Below are positions 19,037-60,314 of a DNA stretch of 64,000 bases, piece after piece. Made by a program: the position numbers and the translations under genes. The notes beneath the pieces were generated by a model. It had not been told where the DNA came from and ran no database searches. It saw only the letters and a program-made list of their open reading frames with translations. The number at the start of each line of letters is the position of its first letter. Position 1 is the stretch's first letter. The stretch lies in the sequence record NC_041936.1. One strand, written 5' to 3'. The DNA is from Escherichia phage ECD7.

Positions 19037-19043
19037 TAAGCGA

Positions 19044-19076
19044 AAGGCGGGGATAATCCCCGCCTTTTTATTTTGC
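19044..19076 (+). terminator. rho-independent terminator after gene 54
   Basis: AAAGGCGGGGA/TCCCCGCCTTT hairpin followed by a T-run. Confidence 0.65.
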
Positions 19077-19553
19077 TAAATCATTGCAATATTTTAGTGC
19101 CTTAGTTTGAAATTCTGCGCTGTTAAGTTCTTCATAACGGTCATAATCACCGTTTAATGCTGCCTTTCTTGCTTCTTGCTCTATCTGCATGTCAGACATG
19201 ATAATACAGCGATCCCGCGCTTTCATCTTCTCAAGTTGTATAGACTCTTCTTTCTGCTTGCGCAATTCTTCTTGACGCTTCTTTTCTTCTTGTGCTTTCT
19301 CTTCCCGCGCTTCTTTGATTGCATCCTTGAACATCTGCGTTTGTGGTGCTAAACCAACTTTAACGCGATCCACGTCTCGACGTTCCATTTTAGAAATAAA
19401 GCATGATTCGATCTGATCATCACTTGCATATGCTGCTTTACATTCACGAAGCAAGAAAACCGGATCTGATTTAGCATTCATCATAGCTTCCATGTTGGCA
19501 CAACCAGTAAGCATGAATGCAGCCGCAAGACCAATCAGTTTAATCATTTTCAT
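19068..19553 (-). CDS. putative lipoprotein (161 aa)
   Basis: signal peptide with lipobox LTGC; charged coiled-coil middle; translationally coupled to the upstream ADP-ribosyltransferase. Confidence 0.6.
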   Translation of the reverse strand: MKMIKLIGLAAAFMLTGCANMEAMMNAKSDPVFLLRECKAAYASDDQIESCFISKMERRDVDRVKVGLAPQTQMFKDAIKEAREEKAQEEKKRQEELRKQKEESIQLEKMKARDRCIIMSDMQIEQEARKAALNGDYDRYEELNSAEFQTKALKYCNDLAK

Positions 19554-20374
19554 TTAGTCACCTCACCGAAAATTGTAAATTGTCTACGATTCTCATCGCC
19601 GAAAGATTCTACTACGTCGTTTACCTTGACGCAAGTCCCGCGCGGTAAAATTACTTCACATTCGCAAGGGTTCCATGCAATTGACCCAACAACAAAACCT
19701 TTATGATCTTTTACGTCAATTACCCATGATACATTACAAGAATGTTGCATCTTTCCGGTCATTGATTCATATCGATTCTCGCAATAAAGGCTAGTGCTGT
19801 TTGATAGCCATCCTCCAAAGATGATTGGTGTCATGCTGGTTGACACAAAGTTTTTAAAGGTAAATTCCTTATCTTCAATAATACGCTCTATTGTCTGAAT
19901 GTCAAGATGTTGACCGCGATAAAGAGTACCGTTTAACTTTTCGGTTTTATCCATGACACAATCCATCAAATCAACAATCTCTGATATCTCATCGGTCATG
20001 TCTTCTTCCCCTAAGAGAGCACCATTTACCCATTCGTATTGTTCGGACACATAATCACAGATTGCATTATATTCTGCTGGGGTTATGTTGTTATGTTTGT
20101 AATGTTTGAATACATTATCTCCAAAGTCTTCGGAGTGTACTTCATACATCACATTAATGATTTTCTTGACAAATCCATAATCTTGTGTCTCACGCTCAAG
20201 GAAGCGGATAACCTTCACATAATCATCAAAGTTAATCTGATCGCTGATCATCTCAGTGATCATGTAACCATTAATCCCCTCAATGTCATATGTTTCGATG
20301 TAATTATCCATACGTTCCATCATTGATTCGCGTGATTCTTCTGAAAGACGAAAATCCTGTAATTTCTTGAACAT
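19550..20374 (-). CDS. ADP-ribosyltransferase (Alt/Mod-like, 274 aa)
   Basis: R-S-E triad: LYRG, FVSTS, CECE; same motifs as the Alt C-terminus (ILYRG, YVSTS, KECE). Confidence 0.7.
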   Translation of the reverse strand: MFKKLQDFRLSEESRESMMERMDNYIETYDIEGINGYMITEMISDQINFDDYVKVIRFLERETQDYGFVKKIINVMYEVHSEDFGDNVFKHYKHNNITPAEYNAICDYVSEQYEWVNGALLGEEDMTDEISEIVDLMDCVMDKTEKLNGTLYRGQHLDIQTIERIIEDKEFTFKNFVSTSMTPIIFGGWLSNSTSLYCENRYESMTGKMQHSCNVSWVIDVKDHKGFVVGSIAWNPCECEVILPRGTCVKVNDVVESFGDENRRQFTIFGEVTK

Positions 20375-20390
20375 TTTAAACCTCCCATAT

Positions 20391-20428
20391 AACAGAAAAC
20401 GGGGCTAGTATAAAACTAGTCCCCGTTT
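20391..20428 (-). terminator. stem-loop, putative terminator downstream of alt
   Basis: AACGGGGCTAGT/ACTAGTCCCCGTT hairpin with a U-rich tail on minus. Confidence 0.45.
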
Positions 20429-20452
20429 GAGTCAACCATTATTTCTTAAAAA

Positions 20453-22504
20453 TTACATTTTAAATTTATCTGGCATTGCGTCTACAGATACCAGATCAGC
20501 GATAAGCTGACGTAGAGTTGCCTTATCTGCTTTCTTACGTTCGGTTTTAGCTTCGCTAATGAAGCTGGAGAAAGACAGGTCAGAAGCAGGTTTAACAACA
20601 CCCTCACGGATGAATGCATCACCGTCCGCGATCATCTCACCAGATTCTTGTAATGCTGCCAGTTCACTTTTGTTCATAATATGTGCCTCAATGTAATAAG
20701 TTTCTTGTGAATCCGTCGATGCCGTAGCACGAGTTACCGTATCAAAGGATAACACAACACCGCGAGGAAGTAAAATCTCGCATTCTTTGTAAGCAAATGC
20801 TTTGTTACCTACTGGCAATACAGGGATGTTTTCCGCGCCAGCGATAGAGAAAGCAACATTAGCGCCACCTTCACCGCGAGAGCCAGCCATAGAATCAACA
20901 CCAGCAACGGCACTAGCCACGTTTGCATTCCAGCCACCAAAAATATTAGGCGCAAGGGAAGTGCTCACATAGTTTTTAAAGTAAAACGCTTTTTGCTTAC
21001 GTGCAGTTTCCCACATTTGCGACCGGAAGTCCATACCACGATACAGAATAGTACCCGGATCAAGTTTAACACCATAGTTAGAGAAGGCATTATCCAGTGC
21101 ATCGCACATCTTGACCAATTCTTCTGGATCTGCGATTCCCTCAAACTCTTCCAGCTTGCGATCAGTTAGGAAGTTGTTCATATTGATGTATGCTGCATCG
21201 GCATATTCGCTCAACACAAAACCTTCCGCGCCCGGCAGATCAAGATCAATATCTGCCATCATTTCACCCATGTTGCTAGCAATTGCTTCAAACATACCGG
21301 ACGCAACATTACGAAGGGCATCGGTTTTAATCTGGGTGATATGACTACGCAGCATTTCAGCTTTTACATCTGCTGGCATAGACTGGTCTACTCGATCCAT
21401 TGCCAGGGCGGTGATCTTGTTTTCGAATACTTCCTCGCTCATGATTTCTTTTAAGCGTTTGATTGAGGCTGCGATAACTTCCGCAGACAACGGATCATAT
21501 TGATCCTGAACTTTTACCAGTTCGCTTACTGCGTATTTTGCATCGGCTTCGCTTTCAAAAATAGTACGCATGAAACCATAGCGAGTGATAATATCACTTG
21601 TCCAGTCATTCAGAGAACGGGCGGTTGAACGTTCTAAGGCTTGACGGTCAATCAGAGTATTAAACTGTTTCTTAGGTTCGGCTTCGGTGATATCTTCTTC
21701 CGGTTTAAGATTAATTTTTTCTGGATGATTCACGTAGTCGCTGTTATAGGTCGCTTGAGTTTTCAGCATTTCTTCTTTAGTCAAACGAGATTTAGCCGCT
21801 ACGCGTTGTTCTGCTTCCGCGTTTCGTTCTTCTTCTGACACAAGACTAGCCGCATACGCCTCATCTTTAGTCAGAGATTCACCAGTAGCCTTAGATACCC
21901 AGCGATCACCTAAATCACTTTCTACTTTAGTGAACAAGGATTCATCAAGTTTAATCCCTTTAATCTTATCAATCGCCATCCCGCGACGTTTGACAACAAC
22001 TAAAGCGATCTTTTTGCTGGTCATTACTTCCTGCTGGAATACTTCAAACTTCGGTGTACGACGCACCAAACGCTCTATAACGCGCTTAACCAGTTCGGTC
22101 TTACCTTTCATGCGGGATACGTTAAAACGGAACATAACAGCGTCTAATTGCGCTTTACGGGCTGTTTCCATAACCACATCAAAAGCACTTGCCATAACTG
22201 CAATCGGGTTATCACCTAGACCATTTTTAAGCTGTACAATACGACCGCTTTTGTTCATTTCACACAGTACAACGTGTGCGGTCTTGTCACCCATACGAAT
22301 AATTTTAGGTGTTTTGTTGGTGAAGTTGCAAAGACGGACAATCACATCTTTATCGCGTGTCTGTACTGCAAAAAGCTGTTTAGGATTCTGCTTAGGCTTT
22401 AAGCATTGTACCGGAGCAATACTGCCAAAGTTTTCTTCCTCTTCCGTCAACAGCCATTTCTCGAAAGATTCAATCATTAGATCGTCGATTTCTAAGTTAA
22501 ACAT
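20453..22504 (-). CDS. alt: Alt ADP-ribosyltransferase (packaged internal head protein)
   Basis: 683 aa (T4 Alt is 682); C-terminal ART motifs; position after gene 54 as in T4. Confidence 0.85.
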   Translation of the reverse strand: MFNLEIDDLMIESFEKWLLTEEEENFGSIAPVQCLKPKQNPKQLFAVQTRDKDVIVRLCNFTNKTPKIIRMGDKTAHVVLCEMNKSGRIVQLKNGLGDNPIAVMASAFDVVMETARKAQLDAVMFRFNVSRMKGKTELVKRVIERLVRRTPKFEVFQQEVMTSKKIALVVVKRRGMAIDKIKGIKLDESLFTKVESDLGDRWVSKATGESLTKDEAYAASLVSEEERNAEAEQRVAAKSRLTKEEMLKTQATYNSDYVNHPEKINLKPEEDITEAEPKKQFNTLIDRQALERSTARSLNDWTSDIITRYGFMRTIFESEADAKYAVSELVKVQDQYDPLSAEVIAASIKRLKEIMSEEVFENKITALAMDRVDQSMPADVKAEMLRSHITQIKTDALRNVASGMFEAIASNMGEMMADIDLDLPGAEGFVLSEYADAAYINMNNFLTDRKLEEFEGIADPEELVKMCDALDNAFSNYGVKLDPGTILYRGMDFRSQMWETARKQKAFYFKNYVSTSLAPNIFGGWNANVASAVAGVDSMAGSRGEGGANVAFSIAGAENIPVLPVGNKAFAYKECEILLPRGVVLSFDTVTRATASTDSQETYYIEAHIMNKSELAALQESGEMIADGDAFIREGVVKPASDLSFSSFISEAKTERKKADKATLRQLIADLVSVDAMPDKFKM

Positions 22505-22545
22505 TTTATATCCTCTAGTTGATAACCTATAAACCTATATTTATG

Positions 22546-22570
22546 AAAAAGGGGCTTAACGCCCCCTTTT
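22546..22570 (-). terminator. symmetric GC hairpin terminator
   Basis: AAAAGGGGC-TTAA-CGCCCCCTTTT. Confidence 0.55.
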
Positions 22571-22820: not shown

Positions 22821-22849
22821 ATTATAGGGGATCACCGATCCCTTGTCAA
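22821..22849 (-). promoter_or_regulatory. sigma70-like early promoter with palindromic spacer (PeSL-type)
   Basis: minus strand TTGACA - 17 nt GGGGATC..GATCCCC spacer - TATAAT. Confidence 0.6.
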
Positions 22850-22857
22850 CAACTTTT

Positions 22858-23376
22858 TTAGTTATTTTTTAATTGCTCATCTTGCAATAGGGCAATCACA
22901 TGCTGGCGATGTTCTTCCGATTGAGGCACACCGAAAAAGTTTGTTTTGTAGAAATACTCTAATCGGTCTTCTCGTGTGCTCTCTTCCATCATGATCGCGG
23001 GTAGTCCGAGATTTCGGAAACGTCGCTTTTCTGCTGGCGTAAAATCACTGTAATACAGCATATAATCATCATTACCAGCAATGCTAAACTCATCCTTCAT
23101 GAAAGAGAATATTGCGTTTAAACGCTGTTTACCGTCCACGATTTCGATTTCATAGCGAGAGCCATCATCAATCTTAGCCATTGCGATAGCACCAACCGGA
23201 AAATCATTAATCAGGTTTTCGATAAACATACGTTTGTTTTCTGTGTCCCATACCAAAGGACGCTGATAATCTGGGTTCATGTTGATATAGCCATCTTCTA
23301 ACCATGCTTCGTAAACAGAGATGACAAAGTTTTTAGTATTGGTATAGTAACGGCGTTTAGGCGTTAAACGGTTCAT
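22858..23376 (-). CDS. DUF262 (ParB-like / GmrSD N-terminal domain) protein
   Basis: DYQRPLVW and IVDGKQRL motifs typical of DUF262; start at internal Met with AGGAG RBS. Confidence 0.55.
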   Translation of the reverse strand: MNRLTPKRRYYTNTKNFVISVYEAWLEDGYINMNPDYQRPLVWDTENKRMFIENLINDFPVGAIAMAKIDDGSRYEIEIVDGKQRLNAIFSFMKDEFSIAGNDDYMLYYSDFTPAEKRRFRNLGLPAIMMEESTREDRLEYFYKTNFFGVPQSEEHRQHVIALLQDEQLKNN

Positions 23377-23377
23377 A

Positions 23378-23707
23378 TTATAGTCTCCTGAATGGATCAT
23401 CACGTAAATCAATATCTTTTAAGAACTCATCCCATGAATGGCGGATATTGTTCTTAATTCTCCAGATAAGCGCAGGGATTGAACGCTCTCCCATCTGGAA
23501 GTAAGGATCATATGATCCGTATGCCCAATATGCTACTACAATTCCACAATCAGCGCAATAGTATTCTATTTCACTTGCTGGCGACCAAAGTCCATCAATA
23601 TGATCAGTGATCTTGCTTTCGATGTTATGGCTATGACAATCAGGGCAACGGATGCAATGACCTTGTTTATCGTAATTTGACGTTAGAGAATACTTAAACA
23701 ATCTCAT
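23378..23707 (-). CDS. zinc-ribbon protein (109 aa)
   Basis: CxxC...CxxC (CIRCPDC ... CADCG); TAATG coupling to the methyltransferase-like gene. Confidence 0.5.
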   Translation of the reverse strand: MRLFKYSLTSNYDKQGHCIRCPDCHSHNIESKITDHIDGLWSPASEIEYYCADCGIVVAYWAYGSYDPYFQMGERSIPALIWRIKNNIRHSWDEFLKDIDLRDDPFRRL

Positions 23708-24423
23708 TATAGATCCTTATTGGCTTCAAATACTGCCTTTGCGAATCCTCGCGGCGTAAGTGACCTGATAGTCTTTGTTCTGGTTCCTTTCCCGCCTAGC
23801 TTAGAATGCTGTTTGCTGTACCCTTTATTAATCTGCAACGGTTTCTTTTCTGGCATTATAAAGCCTTGTCCGGTCCATAAGCAAGTCTTTTTCGGGTACA
23901 TATCACGGGCGGCAATATACTCAGGAAACGTAGGATGCTTATCATCTTCCGGCAAATAACCGCCATATTCCCACGGATGGAACATGTAATCAGGCTTACG
24001 CCACATACTAGAGATAACGCTTACAGGATTCTCTATCATATAGGGAACTCCTAGCCATTCACCCAAATAAGCGGTTATTTTAGCTGCCCGTACATCATGA
24101 ACTTGAATCAATGGTCCTTGTTCTCGTTTCTTTCGTTCAAAGTGTGCAGCGCCACTAACAGCTAAATTGGTGCACGGTGGGAATGCAAATATAATATCCG
24201 GTTTCCCCCATTCAAGGTCCATTGCTCTTTCCAGCCAGTTCAAATCAATCCAGGTGTTTACATAGGTAATGTTTGGATGTTCAAATCTGGTATTATACTT
24301 TTTGTATGTACCGTGGTCGGCGTCATCCGCATTAAAGCAGACTACCTTATGACCTGCTTTAGCCCATTCTAGCCCCATTATCCCCGATCCGTCAAAGTTG
24401 CAGAATATTAATTTTTGTTTCAT
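23707..24423 (-). CDS. cytosine-5 methyltransferase-like protein (238 aa)
   Basis: N-terminal FxGxG (FCNFDGSGIMG), catalytic-type FPPC, and ENP motif in the order of C5-MTase motifs I, IV, VI; short for a DNA MTase. Confidence 0.45.
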   Translation of the reverse strand: MKQKLIFCNFDGSGIMGLEWAKAGHKVVCFNADDADHGTYKKYNTRFEHPNITYVNTWIDLNWLERAMDLEWGKPDIIFAFPPCTNLAVSGAAHFERKKREQGPLIQVHDVRAAKITAYLGEWLGVPYMIENPVSVISSMWRKPDYMFHPWEYGGYLPEDDKHPTFPEYIAARDMYPKKTCLWTGQGFIMPEKKPLQINKGYSKQHSKLGGKGTRTKTIRSLTPRGFAKAVFEANKDL

Positions 24424-24953: not shown

Positions 24954-24982
24954 ATTGTAGGGGAGTTATCCTCCCCTGTCAA
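24954..24982 (-). promoter_or_regulatory. sigma70-like early promoter with palindromic spacer
   Basis: minus TTGACA - 17 nt (GGGGAGGATAACTCCCC) - TACAAT. Confidence 0.55.
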
Positions 24983-28455: not shown

Positions 28456-28484
28456 ATTATAGGGGATCACCGATCCCCTGTCAA
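28456..28484 (-). promoter_or_regulatory. sigma70-like early promoter with palindromic spacer
   Basis: minus TTGACA - GGGGATCGGTGATCCCC - TATAAT. Confidence 0.6.
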
Positions 28485-29996: not shown

Positions 29997-30025
29997 AGTA
30001 TAGGGGATACGTGATCCCCTGTCAA
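29997..30025 (-). promoter_or_regulatory. sigma70-like early promoter with palindromic spacer
   Basis: minus TTGACA - GGGGATCACGTATCCCC - TATACT. Confidence 0.55.
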
Positions 30026-34725: not shown

Positions 34726-35624
34726 TAAAAGTCTCCGTAGTTAACCTGAAAACATTCTACACCAATTGAGCGGTACATGTCAACCACTTGATCACGGTCA
34801 TCTACTGCCAAAACAACATGATAACGCGGTGCAATTTCAGAGAAGAAAATCTCTTTCTTTACTTCATGATCAGGACGACGATCATTAGTTTCACGTTGAA
34901 AGTGATCACTAGGTTCGATACCTTGTTCACGCAACCATTGCAGAGTATCTTCTTCGCAAACATCCTCACGTCCTGAGCATGTAATGATACGATAACCATT
35001 ATCACGATACAGTTTAAGCATTTCGATCACTTGCGGACGCGGTTTATCTTCTTTGACCTTTGTCCAGTCAAACGGATGACGACCGCCCTTATCCGCTAAT
35101 GTCCCATCAATATCAAAGATCACTGCCTTTGGCAGCATGGTATTCGGTTTGTATACTTCTTGACCCATATATTCCTGCATCAGATAAAATTGGTTACGCA
35201 AATGAGATAGCGGAATTGCTTTCTCTCCGCGATAGAAATTACGTTTCTTTAGTGTCTCAAATGATTCATTGAACACTTGCTCAGTATACACCGCGTTAAA
35301 TTCTTTTGCAAGTTCTTTATAGAATACACGATGTTTTTCTTTCAGGTTAGTATCAGAGATAATGATACTTAATCCGCGTGATAGAGTCTCGCGAGCAATC
35401 ATTCTCTGAATAGACTCTACCAGCTTTTCTTTTTCCTTAGTATACTTGTATTTCAAAAGTGAGTCAACACCAAACAACATAAGACGAAGATCATCACGAT
35501 TCACATTACGATAATTACTAAACCGTTTACATGTTTCCATAGCCCATGTAGTTTTACCGGACCCAGAACAACCAACGGTTAAAATCACTTCACATTTCGG
35601 CATTATTTCTCCTTCGGTTTGCAC
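34725..35624 (-). CDS. pseT: polynucleotide 5'-kinase / 3'-phosphatase
   Basis: Walker A GCSGSGKTT; HAD-type DIDGTL; C-terminus VECFQV..GDF colinear with recalled T4 Pnk. Confidence 0.9.
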   Translation of the reverse strand: MQTEGEIMPKCEVILTVGCSGSGKTTWAMETCKRFSNYRNVNRDDLRLMLFGVDSLLKYKYTKEKEKLVESIQRMIARETLSRGLSIIISDTNLKEKHRVFYKELAKEFNAVYTEQVFNESFETLKKRNFYRGEKAIPLSHLRNQFYLMQEYMGQEVYKPNTMLPKAVIFDIDGTLADKGGRHPFDWTKVKEDKPRPQVIEMLKLYRDNGYRIITCSGREDVCEEDTLQWLREQGIEPSDHFQRETNDRRPDHEVKKEIFFSEIAPRYHVVLAVDDRDQVVDMYRSIGVECFQVNYGDF

Positions 35625-43649: not shown

Positions 43650-44882
43650 TTATACTGCCATTTGAGCGGTGATCGCTGGATGGCTTTGATAGTTGTGAAT
43701 TTTAAAGTCTTTCGGAGTCTTTGTCAATACCTCATCTAAAGATTTAAATTCCGGCAACTCAATTGTTGGTTTATCAAACGGAACACGGTTTAACTGTTCC
43801 ATAACTTGATCAAAATGGTTTTTGTAAATGTGAGTATCTCCGCCGGAGAAAATCAGTTCACCAACTTCAAGGTCGCACATTTTCGCTATGATGTGAGTTA
43901 ACAGCGCATAGCTGGCGACGTTAAAGGGCAAGCCCAAAAAGCTGTCTACGCTTCTCTGAAACCACATGCAAGATAGTTTACCTTCATTGACGTAGAATTG
44001 CACGAAAGGATGACATACACCTAATACAGCATTATGTGTTCCTTGTACGTTCCATGAGTCAATAATGATCCGGCGATCCGTTGGATTGTTTTTAATTTGT
44101 TCAATCACGTTTTGTAACTGGTCTTCCCAAATCTTCGGGCGATAGACATATTCTTCATCGTCTTTAGTGCTCGATGTGTCTACGTCCATACTAGCAAAGA
44201 TCGTGGTATCTGGTGCTAAAATATCCCCACCCAGATAATCACTATCAAGCAGATAACCGAAATAACCATCATCTACCCATTCCTGGAATCCCCACAAGCA
44301 ATATGCATCATTAACAAAATTAGATTGAGTCTTCCAGTGGTCTGCTACTAAGAATAGATTATATTCAGAATCAAACTCTTCATAACGCATACCACGCCAG
44401 ATAGCACATAAACGGTCTTCTGTTTCATTGGTTGGCGTAAAGTCTTCTACCCACGGGTGCTTAAATGTATGTGTATATTTGCTCTTAACGCGCTTAATTT
44501 TGACTTCCCCGTGTGGATGAATCGGTTTGCGTCGCCACGCCATACCATACATATTGCCAACATTATAGCCGTTGAATCGTAGCGGATTCTTTTCTTTCAT
44601 ATCAAGACAGTTGCCGCGCCAAATGTCGAAGGCTTCTTCGTCAAACCGACCGCGTGTAATTTCCTGTAAGCGACGGCGGTCAAGTGATCCCTCCATAAAC
44701 CATAGCAACTCGCCAATTACAGAGGCTGTAGCCATCTTTTTAGTGGTCAGTAATGGGAAACCCTTGCTTAAATCAATTCGCATCTCTGCGCCGAATTTAG
44801 AGAGCGTACCTACCCCCGTGCGGTCTTCACGAGGCCAGCCATTATCAAGAACATCACGCAACAGTTTCAAATATTCTTTCAT
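43650..44882 (-). CDS. td: thymidylate synthase with large internal insertion
   Basis: DRTGVGT, LLWF, RRIIIDSWN, VCHPF, QRSVDSFLGLPFNVASYALLTH and C-terminus PKDF..NY.SHP....MAV match TS/T4 Td; about 120 extra residues between MAWRRK and DQLQN. Confidence 0.85.
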   Translation of the reverse strand: MKEYLKLLRDVLDNGWPREDRTGVGTLSKFGAEMRIDLSKGFPLLTTKKMATASVIGELLWFMEGSLDRRRLQEITRGRFDEEAFDIWRGNCLDMKEKNPLRFNGYNVGNMYGMAWRRKPIHPHGEVKIKRVKSKYTHTFKHPWVEDFTPTNETEDRLCAIWRGMRYEEFDSEYNLFLVADHWKTQSNFVNDAYCLWGFQEWVDDGYFGYLLDSDYLGGDILAPDTTIFASMDVDTSSTKDDEEYVYRPKIWEDQLQNVIEQIKNNPTDRRIIIDSWNVQGTHNAVLGVCHPFVQFYVNEGKLSCMWFQRSVDSFLGLPFNVASYALLTHIIAKMCDLEVGELIFSGGDTHIYKNHFDQVMEQLNRVPFDKPTIELPEFKSLDEVLTKTPKDFKIHNYQSHPAITAQMAV

Positions 44883-50435: not shown

Positions 50436-50621
50436 TTAAGTTCTCTCCACTCTCACAACAACATATTCGCCAAACGAGTTAGATACTTCACGATCATACC
50501 CATATTTCTCCATAACTCGCAGAATTGCATTGTTTAATTCGGCGCGGAAATAATTGTAATCCTTATCAGGGATTCTGTCAACTACCCATTTTGCACCTTC
50601 TGACAAATCAACTTTAACCAT
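50436..50621 (-). CDS. small hypothetical protein (61 aa)
   Basis: ORF immediately upstream of rnh. Confidence 0.4.
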   Translation of the reverse strand: MVKVDLSEGAKWVVDRIPDKDYNYFRAELNNAILRVMEKYGYDREVSNSFGEYVVVRVERT

Positions 50622-57371: not shown

Positions 57372-60314
57372 ATGGCAGATTTAAGCAGAATCCAATTTAA
57401 ACGCACTAGCACTAAAGGTCGTAAACCTGATGCTAGTACGATGAATCCGGGGGAATTGGCAATCAACCTTGCGGATCAATATCTTCTTACTAAAAATGAT
57501 TCCGGTGCTATTATCAATTTAAGTTGTCCTCCGGTGTATGACCGCGATGTTACAATGGCGGGTAAGGTTAAAGGTAATAATTATATCTTAAGTAAAACCG
57601 CCAACTATTTGGAAGACCAGACAGCGAGAGATCTTAACTACTTTGGCGCTTTCTGTACCAATGGTCTTGATGGTCTTCTCGAACTCACGCTAAACGTTCC
57701 TCACTCTTCCGGTGTCCAACATGGTCGAGGATTTACTTTCCAGTATGGGCACACTGGATCGCGCGTAGAAACTTATGGATATAATGCACAAGGACAAAAA
57801 GCATTTAGCTATAAAATGTATCACGAAGGTGATAAACCAACTCCAGGAGAATTGAACGTTTATAGCAAACAAGAAGTTGACCGTATGTTTGTTAAAACCG
57901 TTAAACTTGCTACAGTTCCTGTTGATATAGTTGACGGTTATTTTAAATTAGCGACTGCGATGATTCCGCAAAACGGTCGTAGCGTATTTTTCCGTATTCA
58001 TGGTGGTAACGGATATAACGTTACTGCATACGATCAAGTTGATATTGTAGAAATTGTTATTCGCAGTGGAAATAATCGTCCTAAAGGTGTTAACGTTATT
58101 GCATACCGCCGAAATACAAACAAAGCATTTGATGTTTTGGCTGTTAATACTTCTGGTGATAACTATGATATCTACGTGAAATATCAGCGTTACACTGATA
58201 ACGTTATTGTTGAATTTGGTAAAAGTGTTGATGTTGATCTGGTAGTCCATGACGTTCCAGATTTTGTTGTTGATCGTCCTGTTGGCGATAATGTTATTGG
58301 CGGTCGCGCGGTAACTCTTTTCAACACCGAAAACAAACGAGGTGTGTTGAGTTTTGACGACAACACACAAAATAGTTATGATATTGTTCACTTGAGTAAT
58401 GATAGGGGTACTGGACGGAAATATATTCGTAAATTCCGTAGCAACTATAACGAAATGATCTGGCATGAGACGGTTCAAGGTTCTACTTATCGACTCGCCA
58501 CGGGTAGTACAGATGCCCAGGAGATTCTATCCGTTGAATCTAGTAGCTCTATTGCTGGGACTCATAAAGGTAATATTCTTTCTGGTCGAATGATGTTGGG
58601 TGGCGGTAGTAATGTTATTACCTTGCGGCGTCCTGCTGGTCAATCCAACCATATTACGTTTCAAGATAATCGGACTGGATCTATTACCCGTCAAGGGTGG
58701 ATCGGTTATGGTAATGCTGATACTAACGTTTTTGAATGGTATAGTGATGTAGGTGGTACTTCTATTCGTCACCACATCGACGGACAGATCGAACTTGCAA
58801 CCGGTAACACAAAACGAGTTTATACTAACGCTCAATTCATCTCAATGAATAGCAACGCCTACCGTATGCTATACGGTAATTATGGTGCATTCTGGCGTAA
58901 TGACGGCGTTAAAGTTTATCTTCTTTCTACTGCCGAAAATGATAAATTGGGTGGATGGAATAGCTATCGTCCATTCATTTATGATTTAACTTCCGGTAAC
59001 GTTCAATTAGGCGGTGATGGTAACGAAGATGCATTAACGTTAGAACTTGCTTCTCGTGCCGCTCGCTTTAGTAATGACGTTTACATTAAGAAAGGGCATT
59101 TGACTTTCGACGCTGGGCGCTCTGGATCTCGCGATTACTTCCGGTTTAACCATTGGGGTGATAGCAATAATGCCCGTGATAACATTCTATATCTAGAAGA
59201 CAGTAAAGGTCGACATTTTAGCACCGAGCGTAATATGGCAACGGGTGCATTAAAAGCCGACTTCTTAGGCGATCTTGAAGTTGGTGGTAAGTTGACATGG
59301 GGTAAAAATACAGCTACATCTAGCTTTAATATTCGTGCATGGGGTAGTGATTCTCGTAAGCAAGTATTAGAATGCGCGGATGAAAGTGGTTGGCATTGGT
59401 ATACCCAACGTGCTGGCGGTCCAGGTACTGAATTAATCGATTTTGCCATTAATGGTACTGTTAAGCCTAAAGCAATTCACACTGGCGGTAATATTACCCT
59501 GAACGGTCCTGATATTGAGTTTAAACGCGCTGGCAATAAGCACATCTGGTTTAGAGATCCAGACGGTTTAGAGTTAGGCTTGATGTACTGCGATGATGCT
59601 GGTGCTATTCGATTCCGTGGTCAGAAACAAGCCCAAGCGTGGAAATTTGCAGATAAAATGATCCAGTTGGAATCTGGTACTGTAACCGGTGGCGGTAATG
59701 GCCTGATTCGTGGTGAAGTTGCTGGCGGTAGTTGGGCTAGCTGGCGTGACCGTGCTGCTGGCCTTATGGTTGGGTGTCCTCAATCCACCAACTCGGCACA
59801 TAACGTATGGAAAGCGACGCATTGGGGTAAATATCACATTGCAGCAATGGCTGTACATGTTCCTGATGGTACTATTACCAATGCTTTAGCTCGCCTAAAC
59901 GTTCATGACGCCAACTTTGACTTTAGCGCATCCGGTGACTTGTCGGCAGGTCGTAACGGTTCGTTTAACGATGTGTATATTCGTTCTGATGCTCGCCTTA
60001 AAATCAATAAGGAAGAGTATAAGGAGAATGCCACCGATAAAGTTAATCGCTTGACGGTATACACCTATGACAAGGTTAAATCTTTAACCGACCGTACTGT
60101 CATTGCTCATGAAGTTGGTATTATTGCTCAGGATCTTGAAAAAGAATTGCCGGAAGCCGTAACAACTTCTAAGATCGGCGACCCAGATAATCCAGAAGAG
60201 ATCTTAACAATTTCTAACTCTGCTGTCAACGCTCTTTTAATTAAGGCGTTTCAGGAAATGAGCAAAGAATTGAAAGCCGTTAAAGCTGAACTAGCAGAAC
60301 TTAAAAAGAATTAA
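57372..60314 (+). CDS. 37: long tail fibre distal subunit gp37 with C-terminal intramolecular chaperone domain
   Basis: 980 aa; N-terminal MADL and fibre repeat motifs; C-terminal domain begins at SDARLK. Confidence 0.75.
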   Translation: MADLSRIQFKRTSTKGRKPDASTMNPGELAINLADQYLLTKNDSGAIINLSCPPVYDRDVTMAGKVKGNNYILSKTANYLEDQTARDLNYFGAFCTNGLDGLLELTLNVPHSSGVQHGRGFTFQYGHTGSRVETYGYNAQGQKAFSYKMYHEGDKPTPGELNVYSKQEVDRMFVKTVKLATVPVDIVDGYFKLATAMIPQNGRSVFFRIHGGNGYNVTAYDQVDIVEIVIRSGNNRPKGVNVIAYRRNTNKAFDVLAVNTSGDNYDIYVKYQRYTDNVIVEFGKSVDVDLVVHDVPDFVVDRPVGDNVIGGRAVTLFNTENKRGVLSFDDNTQNSYDIVHLSNDRGTGRKYIRKFRSNYNEMIWHETVQGSTYRLATGSTDAQEILSVESSSSIAGTHKGNILSGRMMLGGGSNVITLRRPAGQSNHITFQDNRTGSITRQGWIGYGNADTNVFEWYSDVGGTSIRHHIDGQIELATGNTKRVYTNAQFISMNSNAYRMLYGNYGAFWRNDGVKVYLLSTAENDKLGGWNSYRPFIYDLTSGNVQLGGDGNEDALTLELASRAARFSNDVYIKKGHLTFDAGRSGSRDYFRFNHWGDSNNARDNILYLEDSKGRHFSTERNMATGALKADFLGDLEVGGKLTWGKNTATSSFNIRAWGSDSRKQVLECADESGWHWYTQRAGGPGTELIDFAINGTVKPKAIHTGGNITLNGPDIEFKRAGNKHIWFRDPDGLELGLMYCDDAGAIRFRGQKQAQAWKFADKMIQLESGTVTGGGNGLIRGEVAGGSWASWRDRAAGLMVGCPQSTNSAHNVWKATHWGKYHIAAMAVHVPDGTITNALARLNVHDANFDFSASGDLSAGRNGSFNDVYIRSDARLKINKEEYKENATDKVNRLTVYTYDKVKSLTDRTVIAHEVGIIAQDLEKELPEAVTTSKIGDPDNPEEILTISNSAVNALLIKAFQEMSKELKAVKAELAELKKN
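59985..60311 (+). other. intramolecular chaperone (peptidase S74-like) autoproteolytic domain at the gp37 C-terminus
   Basis: SDARLKINKE ... VGIIAQDLEKELPEAV ... LLIKAFQEM ... coiled-coil tail; pattern recalled from endosialidase/T5 fibre chaperone domains. Confidence 0.6.

Follow-up and report, generated by a model that had tools for sequence, protein, structure and literature searches.

The window analysed here, to whose positions all coordinates refer, is a stretch of 64,000 nt from Escherichia phage ECD7 (NC_041936.1), and the genes of interest are two that lie between alt and gene 54: a short ADP-ribosyltransferase (ART) and a putative lipoprotein, which correspond to open reading frames (ORFs) 183 and 182 of Escherichia phage Phi1 and of phage RB49. 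A 1.6-kb stretch around the pair had 99.4% identity to Phi1 in a nucleotide database search, and all of the records that matched it at 95–99% identity (n = 57) belonged to Krischvirus, the RB49/Phi1 group of T-even coliphages. The features of the locus, including a spacer of the type termed PeSL (promoter-early/stem-loop), an early promoter/terminator family of RB49-type phages, are as follows:

20453–22504, minus strand: alt, full-length Alt ADP-ribosyltransferase of 683 aa (phrog_802, E = 6e-180), the paralogue adjoining the short ART
19550–20374, minus strand: short Alt-like ADP-ribosyltransferase of 274 aa, Phi1 ORF183 / RB49p183 (PF03496, phrog_15144)
19068–19553, minus strand: predicted lipoprotein precursor of 161 aa, Phi1 ORF182 / RB49p182 (phrog_16112, lipobox)
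19550–19553, minus strand: ATGA stop/start overlap of 4 bases between ORF183 and ORF182, read from the sequence
20375–20452, minus strand: 78-bp spacer from alt to ORF183, a PeSL cassette by its promoter motifs, fold and conservation
22538–22565, minus strand: stem-loop terminator (22551–22565), then the late-promoter-like octamer CATAAATA (22545–22538), upstream of alt (putative function)
19042–19068, bidirectional: intrinsic terminator common to the ART-lipoprotein operon and the convergent gene 54 (12-bp stem, 7 G-C pairs)

The window Alt is 100% identical to the Alt of Phi1 and of GEC-3S, and the Alt of a metagenomic relative (L024), 99% identical to it, bears both PF26846 and PF03496. Both of the smaller genes are real, conserved and previously annotated, having been in the databases since 2003–2006. 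ORF183 is labelled "ADP-ribosyltransferase" in RefSeq (Phi1), with the note "similar to C-terminal part of T4 Alt protein" in RB49, and ORF182 is labelled "hypothetical protein", with "putative lipoprotein" in one genome and "Lipoprotein" in UniProt for another. The initial annotation of the window had set the pair apart from T4, but a claim of novelty does not hold: the ART paralogue and the signal peptide were both already reported by Nolan et al. 2006 (PMC1524935), who listed RB49ORF183c, 44RRORF188c and T4 alt.-1/alt.-2 as paralogous duplications of alt, predicted a signal peptide at residues 1–20 of ORF182 and tabulated the terminator '54-><-RB49ORF182c'. A terminator between ORF182 and gene 54 is also annotated in phage TB34. 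What is added here is the truncation of the ART, its own PeSL, the recurrent gene order, the allelic cassettes of the lipoprotein and the inventory of ART genes.

ORF183 matched the Pfam family PF03496 (ADPrib_exo_Tox) at 59.3 bits (cut-off 23.4, E = 4e-16), with residues 82–266 covering positions 2–187 of the 196-position model, and matched phrog_15144 'ADP-ribosyltransferase', of which it is the founding type. Its catalytic residues were placed by alignment:

19916–19918, minus strand: catalytic R153 (LYR153G)
19835–19843, minus strand: S178-T-S180
19655–19663, minus strand: E238-C-E240 (ExE)

These residues align with the catalytic Arg, STS and ExE of the window Alt and of T4 Alt, and the flanking residues are common to ORF183 and both Alts (FKNFVSTS, as FxNFVSTS; PxIFGGW, as PxIFGxW; and E-x-EVILPRG). 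In a joint alignment that added T4 ModA, T4 ModB and Phi1 ModB, the Arg and ExE were invariant throughout and the STS was shared with the Alts, so that the intact R-S-E triad that the initial annotation had ascribed to a 274-aa ART directly downstream of alt is borne out. Across the short-ART family and Alt the Arg, STS and ExE are invariant, and both the length and all catalytic residues of ORF183 are kept in five lineages at identities down to 31%. An AlphaFold (AF2) model of ORF183 (predicted local distance difference test [pLDDT], 83; predicted template modelling score, 0.80) places R153 and the STS on strands and the ExE at the start of a strand, and a Foldseek search with this model returned Certhrax, Vis, C3 (C3bot), CDTa and iota-toxin Ia (E = 1e-10 to 1e-8, probability 1.0). 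Compared with a diverged relative at a synonymous divergence (dS) of 0.3–1.0, the ratio of nonsynonymous to synonymous substitution rates (dN/dS) was 0.04 for ORF183 and 0.10 for ORF182. This purifying selection indicates that both are genuine working genes rather than chance ORFs. By sequence and predicted fold, ORF183 is a putative ART of the R-S-E clade (Alt/VIP2/C3-like) with the arginine-type signature R-S-ExE.

The relationship to Alt is one of truncation. Residues 8–268 of ORF183 align to positions 330–602 of a 674-position Alt profile; PF26846 (Tevenvirinae_ADPRT), the N-terminal half of Alt, is recorded on the adjoining Alts and on none of the short ARTs, which carry PF03496 only; and the alignment shows that the C-terminal tail of Alt (~75 aa, ending ...MPxKF..) is absent from all short ARTs. 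The different N-terminal targeting region that had been proposed for the second ART is accordingly replaced by a truncated Alt. Judged from these alignments, ORF183 is an old truncated alt paralogue that retains a helical lead-in and the catalytic domain. The duplication appears old because the score of ORF183 was 88 bits with T4 Alt and only 67 bits with the adjoining Alt of the window, and because the short ARTs of five lineages form a separate monophyletic clade in a neighbour-joining tree (bootstrap, 100). For the window and two contigs from which both genes were sampled (L010 and L021), the branching order of the short ARTs agrees with that of the accompanying Alts. The deep nodes of the tree, on which an origin of the short ARTs from Krischvirus alt or from elsewhere turns, had 1–37% support.

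Other T-even phages have second copies of alt between alt and gene 54, and the state of these copies varies from phage to phage:

Shigella phage SH7: second alt copy, full-length, in tandem
Aeromonas phage Riv-10: second alt copy, full-length, in tandem
Metagenomic Tequatrovirus-like contig L016: second alt copy, split into 273 aa and 415 aa
T4: alt.-1 and alt.-2, N-terminal remnants

On sequence grounds, the duplications of alt look lineage-specific and not the result of one shared event. As the initial annotation had it, T4 holds only alt.-1, alt.-2 and alt.-3 at this position; Alt.-3 was considered as a positional analogue of ORF182 and rejected, having no signal peptide. Among metagenomic T4-like contigs, L016 (4183–6248) and L015 (2366–4386) have alt-like genes split into an N-terminal ORF (273 or 356 aa) and a C-terminal catalytic ORF (415 or 316 aa) that overlap by a few bases. 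These split genes could be intermediates between a full second alt and a short ART, or frameshifted genes.

An inventory of ART genes was made by tblastn against a whole Krischvirus genome, made up of Phi1 pieces and the window. The T4 Alt query had two matches (alt and ORF183), the T4 ModB query had one (phi1p014) and the T4 ModA query had none. The modB-like gene of Phi1 is single and lies next to srd. The Krischvirus complement is therefore three ART genes, namely Alt, ORF183 and a single ModB-like gene, and T4 likewise has three (Alt, ModA and ModB), such that the second ART is extra at this locus, as initially annotated, and not extra to the overall complement. Membership of ORF183 in the Mod family was rejected, as it is 13–19% identical to T4 ModA and ModB in the joint alignment and neither query matched it by tblastn, with its best PHROG matches being Alt-like families. 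T4 Alt is an arginine ADP-ribosyltransferase carried in the virion.

Within the 78-bp spacer between alt and ORF183, the order of elements is an AT-rich tract, TTGACT-17-TATACT, a stem-loop over the -10, a U-rich tail, GGGAGG and the ATG:

20435–20430, minus strand: -35 element TTGACT, with a 17-nt spacer to the -10
20412–20407, minus strand: -10 element TATACT, overlapped by the stem-loop
20397–20428, minus strand: stem-loop of the PeSL, followed by a U-rich tail
20386–20381, minus strand: Shine-Dalgarno GGGAGG of ORF183, before the ATG

The stem-loop has a predicted fold of -20.6 kcal/mol (z = -3.8), with none of 200 shuffles as stable, and its stem includes two compensatory pair changes (CTAG/CTAG to TCAG/CTGA). 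Every one of the eight lineages examined has retained a PeSL ahead of its short ART. The pattern TTGACW-N17-TAHAMT occurs eight times in the window, in each case on the minus (early-gene) strand, against 0.22 matches expected. The eight sites (20407–20435, 22821–22849, 24954–24982, 28456–28484, 29997–30025, 35439–35467, 43699–43727 and 50553–50581), several with a GGGGA..TCCCC hairpin in the spacer, constitute the PeSL family in this window. The architecture was named by Arbiol et al. 2010 (PMC2839356), and other copies act as a strong early promoter and terminator. The alt-ORF183 spacer meets this definition, with its own promoter and terminator activity predicted, and Nolan et al. 2006 (PMC1524935) predicted an early promoter (Pe:112388) exactly at this spacer.

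Upstream of alt the arrangement is different in kind. After the stem-loop terminator comes CATAAATA, which differs from the T4 late consensus TATAAATA at a single position and is the sole minus-strand match to that consensus within one mismatch in the alt-ORF182 stretch of RB49; between alt and ORF182 there was no TATAAATA within one mismatch. We infer from these elements that alt is probably late and that ORF183 and ORF182 form an early bicistronic unit. The Shine-Dalgarno of ORF182 (GAGGTGA) lies within the last codons of the ART, whose stop overlaps the start of the 161-aa lipobox protein as initially described, and across all eight lineages the stop and start range from 1 nt apart to an 8-nt overlap. 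Overlapping genes are commonplace, with about half of the adjacent gene pairs examined in the Phi1 annotation overlapping, and because such overlap is routine in this genome it does not by itself imply a partnership.

The N-terminus of ORF182 (MKMIKLIGLAAAFMLTG-C18, resolved as MKMIKLIGLAAAFM-LTG-C18-A) has a basic n-region, a hydrophobic core, the lipobox LTGC and Ala at +2:

19500–19502, minus strand: predicted acylated Cys18 (lipobox LTGC), preceded by a predicted signal peptide at residues 1–17

The lipobox Cys is invariant in every homologue and every member has Ala or Ser at +2, with atypical lipoboxes (LNGC, LFGC or MTGC) in some alleles. ORF182 is, by these features, a lipoprotein precursor, with lipidation and outer-membrane sorting predicted. 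A further four cysteines (38, 51, 116 and 156) are invariant across homologues, the alleles of which are only 22–44% identical, and such conservation in an exported protein suggests two disulfides, predicted as C38-C51 and C116-C156. The AF2 model of ORF182 (pLDDT, 88) is all-helical and rod-like, one of its helices spanning some 63 residues, and disorder is limited to the signal peptide (residues 1–15, low pLDDT), with confident helix elsewhere.

The family is small. A word-indexed search gave 41 ORF182 matches, all from Krischvirus-like phage contigs, a HMMER profile search of 1.84 billion representative proteins gave nine (103–170 aa, eight of them 155–170 aa) and a search of IMG/VR gave one locus. 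Matches of ORF182 in Pfam, NCBIfam and PHROGs were all signal-peptide-level or sub-threshold. No homologue of T4 Imm or Spackle was detected in the genome by tblastn, leaving the envelope-exclusion role filled by no recognised gene. A spanin role for ORF182 was rejected, since Rz-like genes (pseT.2 and pseT.3) occur elsewhere and ORF182 has no C-terminal transmembrane segment. The allele of phage JK32 (L004, 2501–3013) had a sub-threshold match over residues 2–99 to the Lpp/OprI alanine-zipper family NF040598 (E = 2.5e-4; 21.5 bits, cut-off 43), and most alleles end in Lys, as Lpp does, with some ending in Asn. More speculatively, and with thin support from the long ER/K-rich helix, the C-terminal Lys and this sub-threshold match, ORF182 could be a rod in the outer membrane, akin to Lpp, that changes the periplasm.

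Alt, the short ART and the lipoprotein are present in all 57 Krischvirus records, and the order alt, short ART, lipoprotein and gene 54 recurs in these 57 genomes and in five more divergent metagenomic lineages. Every divergent lipoprotein homologue on a contig that retains an identifiable upstream gene (L010, L012, L019, L021, L022, L024 and L026) directly follows a short ART (264–282 aa) and precedes gene 54. Within this constant order the lipoprotein is exchanged. Relative to the window, phage E26 has an ART that is 100% identical and a mature lipoprotein that is 30% identical, and JK32 has values of 98% and 26%, respectively. In nucleotide comparison, identity extends through the ART and approximately the first 30 nt of signal-peptide coding, drops sharply over the part that encodes the mature protein and returns with the final codons and the terminator, and some metagenomic alleles join the signal peptide of the window to other mature types. 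From this pattern of sequence identity, the mature region is read as a clean cassette replacement. The dS of the lipoprotein was 0.98, compared to 0.23–0.29 for alt and the ART (ART, 0.29), and as the extra divergence is mostly synonymous, the alleles appear to be old and moved by recombination, not products of an adaptive burst. Positive selection on the lipoprotein was rejected, given its dN/dS, a divergence that stems from high dS and purifying selection within an allele class.

The reading that best accommodates these data, and that is considered somewhat more probable than its negation, is an early operon that encodes an ART made in the cell and a lipoprotein that acts independently of it at the envelope. 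Under this model, alt would be transcribed from its late-type promoter and Alt carried in the virion, by analogy with T4. ORF183, having its own PeSL early promoter, would most likely be synthesised inside the newly infected cell, from a sigma-70-type promoter set within a terminator stem-loop. Its activity would be the mono-ADP-ribosylation of arginine residues in host proteins, with nicotinamide adenine dinucleotide (NAD+) as donor, at a time resembling that of the T4 Mod enzymes, and as there is one Mod-like gene and no detectable ModA, ORF183 may cover the ModA role. RNA polymerase alpha is a candidate target, named only because it is a known target of Alt. ORF182 would be translated from the ORF183 message and leave the cytoplasm through Sec. 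After lipidation of Cys18, the Ala at +2 would direct it to the outer membrane, where an elongated helical domain, probably with two disulfides, would face the periplasm. There it would act alone, with no binding to the ART; an envelope-acting role is plausible from its sequence features, and, as a best guess, it would exclude other phages or protect against them or against envelope damage.

Several points weigh against this model, some of them being also the grounds for the alternatives that follow. The early promoter of Nolan et al. 2006 (PMC1524935) at the spacer has a low score (9.3, compared to about 30–39 for neighbouring early promoters). Alleles B and C of the lipoprotein have the non-canonical lipobox LNGC, a fold search of ORF182 against the PDB and viral libraries found nothing beyond generic helices, and the searches run found no sequence or fold similarity of ORF182 to Cor, Llp, Rz1, Spackle or Imm. 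There was no correlation between lipoprotein allele and the identity of the gp37 tip, and the idea of envelope exclusion had no positive support from the similarity, fold or gp37-tip comparisons. Literature searches on Krischvirus proteomics, transcriptomics and lipoprotein function yielded no relevant data on ORF183 or ORF182.

Among the alternatives, it is unlikely, though not fanciful, that ORF183 is packaged in the virion and injected like Alt, after late synthesis from transcripts that start at the alt late promoter and read through into it; such read-through could yield late expression. ORF183 is directly downstream of alt in the same orientation, and four of the five short-ART lineages, read by eye, carry an [LI]-x-E tripeptide, of the kind cleaved by the T4 prohead protease, among residues 1–12. 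A check for such a motif had been proposed at the outset, and the tripeptide is indeed present, but so short a motif would be likely to turn up by chance in N-termini rich in Glu. The prevailing view is that Alt/VIP2-type ARTs of phages in T4-like contexts are packaged in the head (Iyer et al. 2022), and a late promoter on the minus strand (Pl:112065; score 15.9, the best of RB49) is listed inside ORF183 by Nolan et al. 2006 (PMC1524935). At that site (RB49 112023–112065, minus strand; window about 20084–20126), however, nothing resembling TATAAATA was found in either sequence, and the mismatch reflects either a coordinate error in the table or a hidden Markov model that matched something else. 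Packaging is further opposed by the lack of both the PF26846 half and the conserved C-terminal tail of Alt, by the stable stem-loop and U-tail between alt and ORF183, and by the conserved sigma-70-type promoter of the short ART itself.

For the lipoprotein, a tentative and improbable extension of the early-operon model is that ORF182 is a new T-even factor for envelope protection or superinfection exclusion that replaces Imm and Spackle and is co-expressed with the early ART, with its alleles representing specificity groups among co-circulating Krischviruses. If true, cytoplasmic takeover and envelope sealing would begin together. Rather doubtful is a role in which the lipoprotein blocks the phage's own outer-membrane receptor, in the manner of T5 Llp or Cor, preventing superinfection and the loss of progeny on debris. 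T5 Llp is an outer-membrane lipoprotein with disulfides, and ORF182 is likewise predicted to be an early-expressed outer-membrane lipoprotein with disulfides, has polymorphic alleles and gave weak PHROG matches to Cor (E = 0.003–0.007). Those matches, however, cover only the signal peptide (residues 1–25 or 1–45), the viral and PDB libraries hold no fold match and the gene is not beside the fibre genes. The allele of phage Whisky is only about 29% identical to that of the window, yet Whisky has the closest gp37 tip (95.8%), compared to 64–94% for allele-A phages.

It is also improbable, to a marked degree, that the ART and lipoprotein constitute a two-component module in which the lipoprotein serves as an immunity factor, a chaperone or an obligatory envelope partner, the first two of which were among the roles offered in the initial annotation. 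The pair was never found separated, in the 57 Krischvirus records or the seven contigs, which could mean a functional link, and both the stop/start abutment and the internal Shine-Dalgarno are conserved. The linkage, though, is at one syntenic site in one phage clade, for which vertical inheritance suffices, and gene overlaps are commonplace here. The ART has no signal peptide and the lipoprotein is predicted to be exported, and no periplasmic NAD+ pool is known. ARTs that are 98–100% identical stand beside lipoprotein alleles that are 26–30% identical, so the two proteins do not co-vary; this, together with their different compartments, makes an immunity or chaperone relation unlikely. Finally, that ORF183 is a decaying, functionless remnant of a duplicated alt, for which T4 alt.-1/alt.-2 at the same place and the split second copy of L016 offer precedents, can hardly be upheld against a dN/dS of 0.04, the retention of length and catalytic residues in five lineages down to 31% identity and a dedicated conserved promoter.

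Other features of the window were observed beyond the operon. Upstream of alt on the minus strand, a 184-aa ORF (22858–23412) has a GmrSD_N (DUF262-type) domain only (PF03235, E = 6e-20), and the same gene also lies upstream of alt in metagenomic relatives (L024). Being one half of an enzyme that restricts modified DNA, this phage-borne ORF could be a decoy or an anti-defence factor. A 238-aa ORF (23707–24423, minus strand) is a DNA methyltransferase in the Phi1 annotation (ORF189) and had no Pfam match at E ≤ 0.01, and the adjoining 109-aa ORF (23378–23707, minus strand) had a weak zinc-ribbon match. For the C-terminal 301 aa of gp37 (59409–60311, plus strand), which form the receptor-binding tip of the long tail fibre, no database phage has a tip more than 95.8% identical, and the tip of Phi1 is only 91% identical, though its Alt is 100% identical. 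This divergence is the usual mosaicism at host-range determinants.

Compared to known systems, the predicted lipoprotein resembles T5 Llp, Cor (phi80/N15) and the o-spanin Rz1 in being a small, exported, lipobox-anchored phage protein, and it shares with T4 Spackle a helical make-up, predicted disulfides and a predicted periplasm-facing position; Spackle and Imm are the functional analogues considered for it. As a very small orphan family with allelic cassettes in phages that have no recognisable Imm or Spackle, ORF182 is a cheap candidate for phage-phage exclusion, a property that bears on the design of cocktails from these therapy-type phages. The ORF183 cassette has the make-up of the PeSLs of RB49 and Phi1 (Arbiol et al. 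2010; Comeau et al. 2014), with an AT-rich leader, consensus-like -35 and -10 elements, a stem-loop over the -10 and a Shine-Dalgarno in an intergenic position. PeSLs usually accompany shuffled ORFans, whereas this one is fixed throughout the clade.

Like the second copies of SH7 and Riv-10, T4 alt.-1/alt.-2 and ORF187/188 of phage 44RR, ORF183 is a product of alt duplication in the slot between alt and gene 54. What sets it apart from them is that the catalytic C-terminal part alone survives, with a promoter of its own and with strong purifying selection on the gene. With T4 Alt it shares a homologous catalytic domain (31% identity over 181 aa), an adjacent locus and the same R-S-ExE signature, but proteins of the T4 Alt type are about 683 aa with the PF26846 half and the ~75-aa tail, neither of which is found in the 274 aa of ORF183, and Alt has a late-type promoter where ORF183 has an early sigma-70/PeSL promoter, falls in a separate clade and is unlikely to be packaged. 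Like ORF183, T4 ModA and ModB are small R-S-E ARTs, probably made early and working from within the infected cell, though ORF183 occupies a different locus and lies outside the Mod sequence family. The three ARTs of T4 are a classic example of how a phage takes over its host, and interest in them has been renewed by the RNAylation that ModB catalyses. The Krischvirus set differs in that Alt is joined by a single Mod-like enzyme and by an Alt catalytic domain apparently re-deployed as an early gene, and the targets of ORF183, set against those of Alt and ModA, would show how the choice of substrate and the route of delivery, injected or made in the cell, have evolved.

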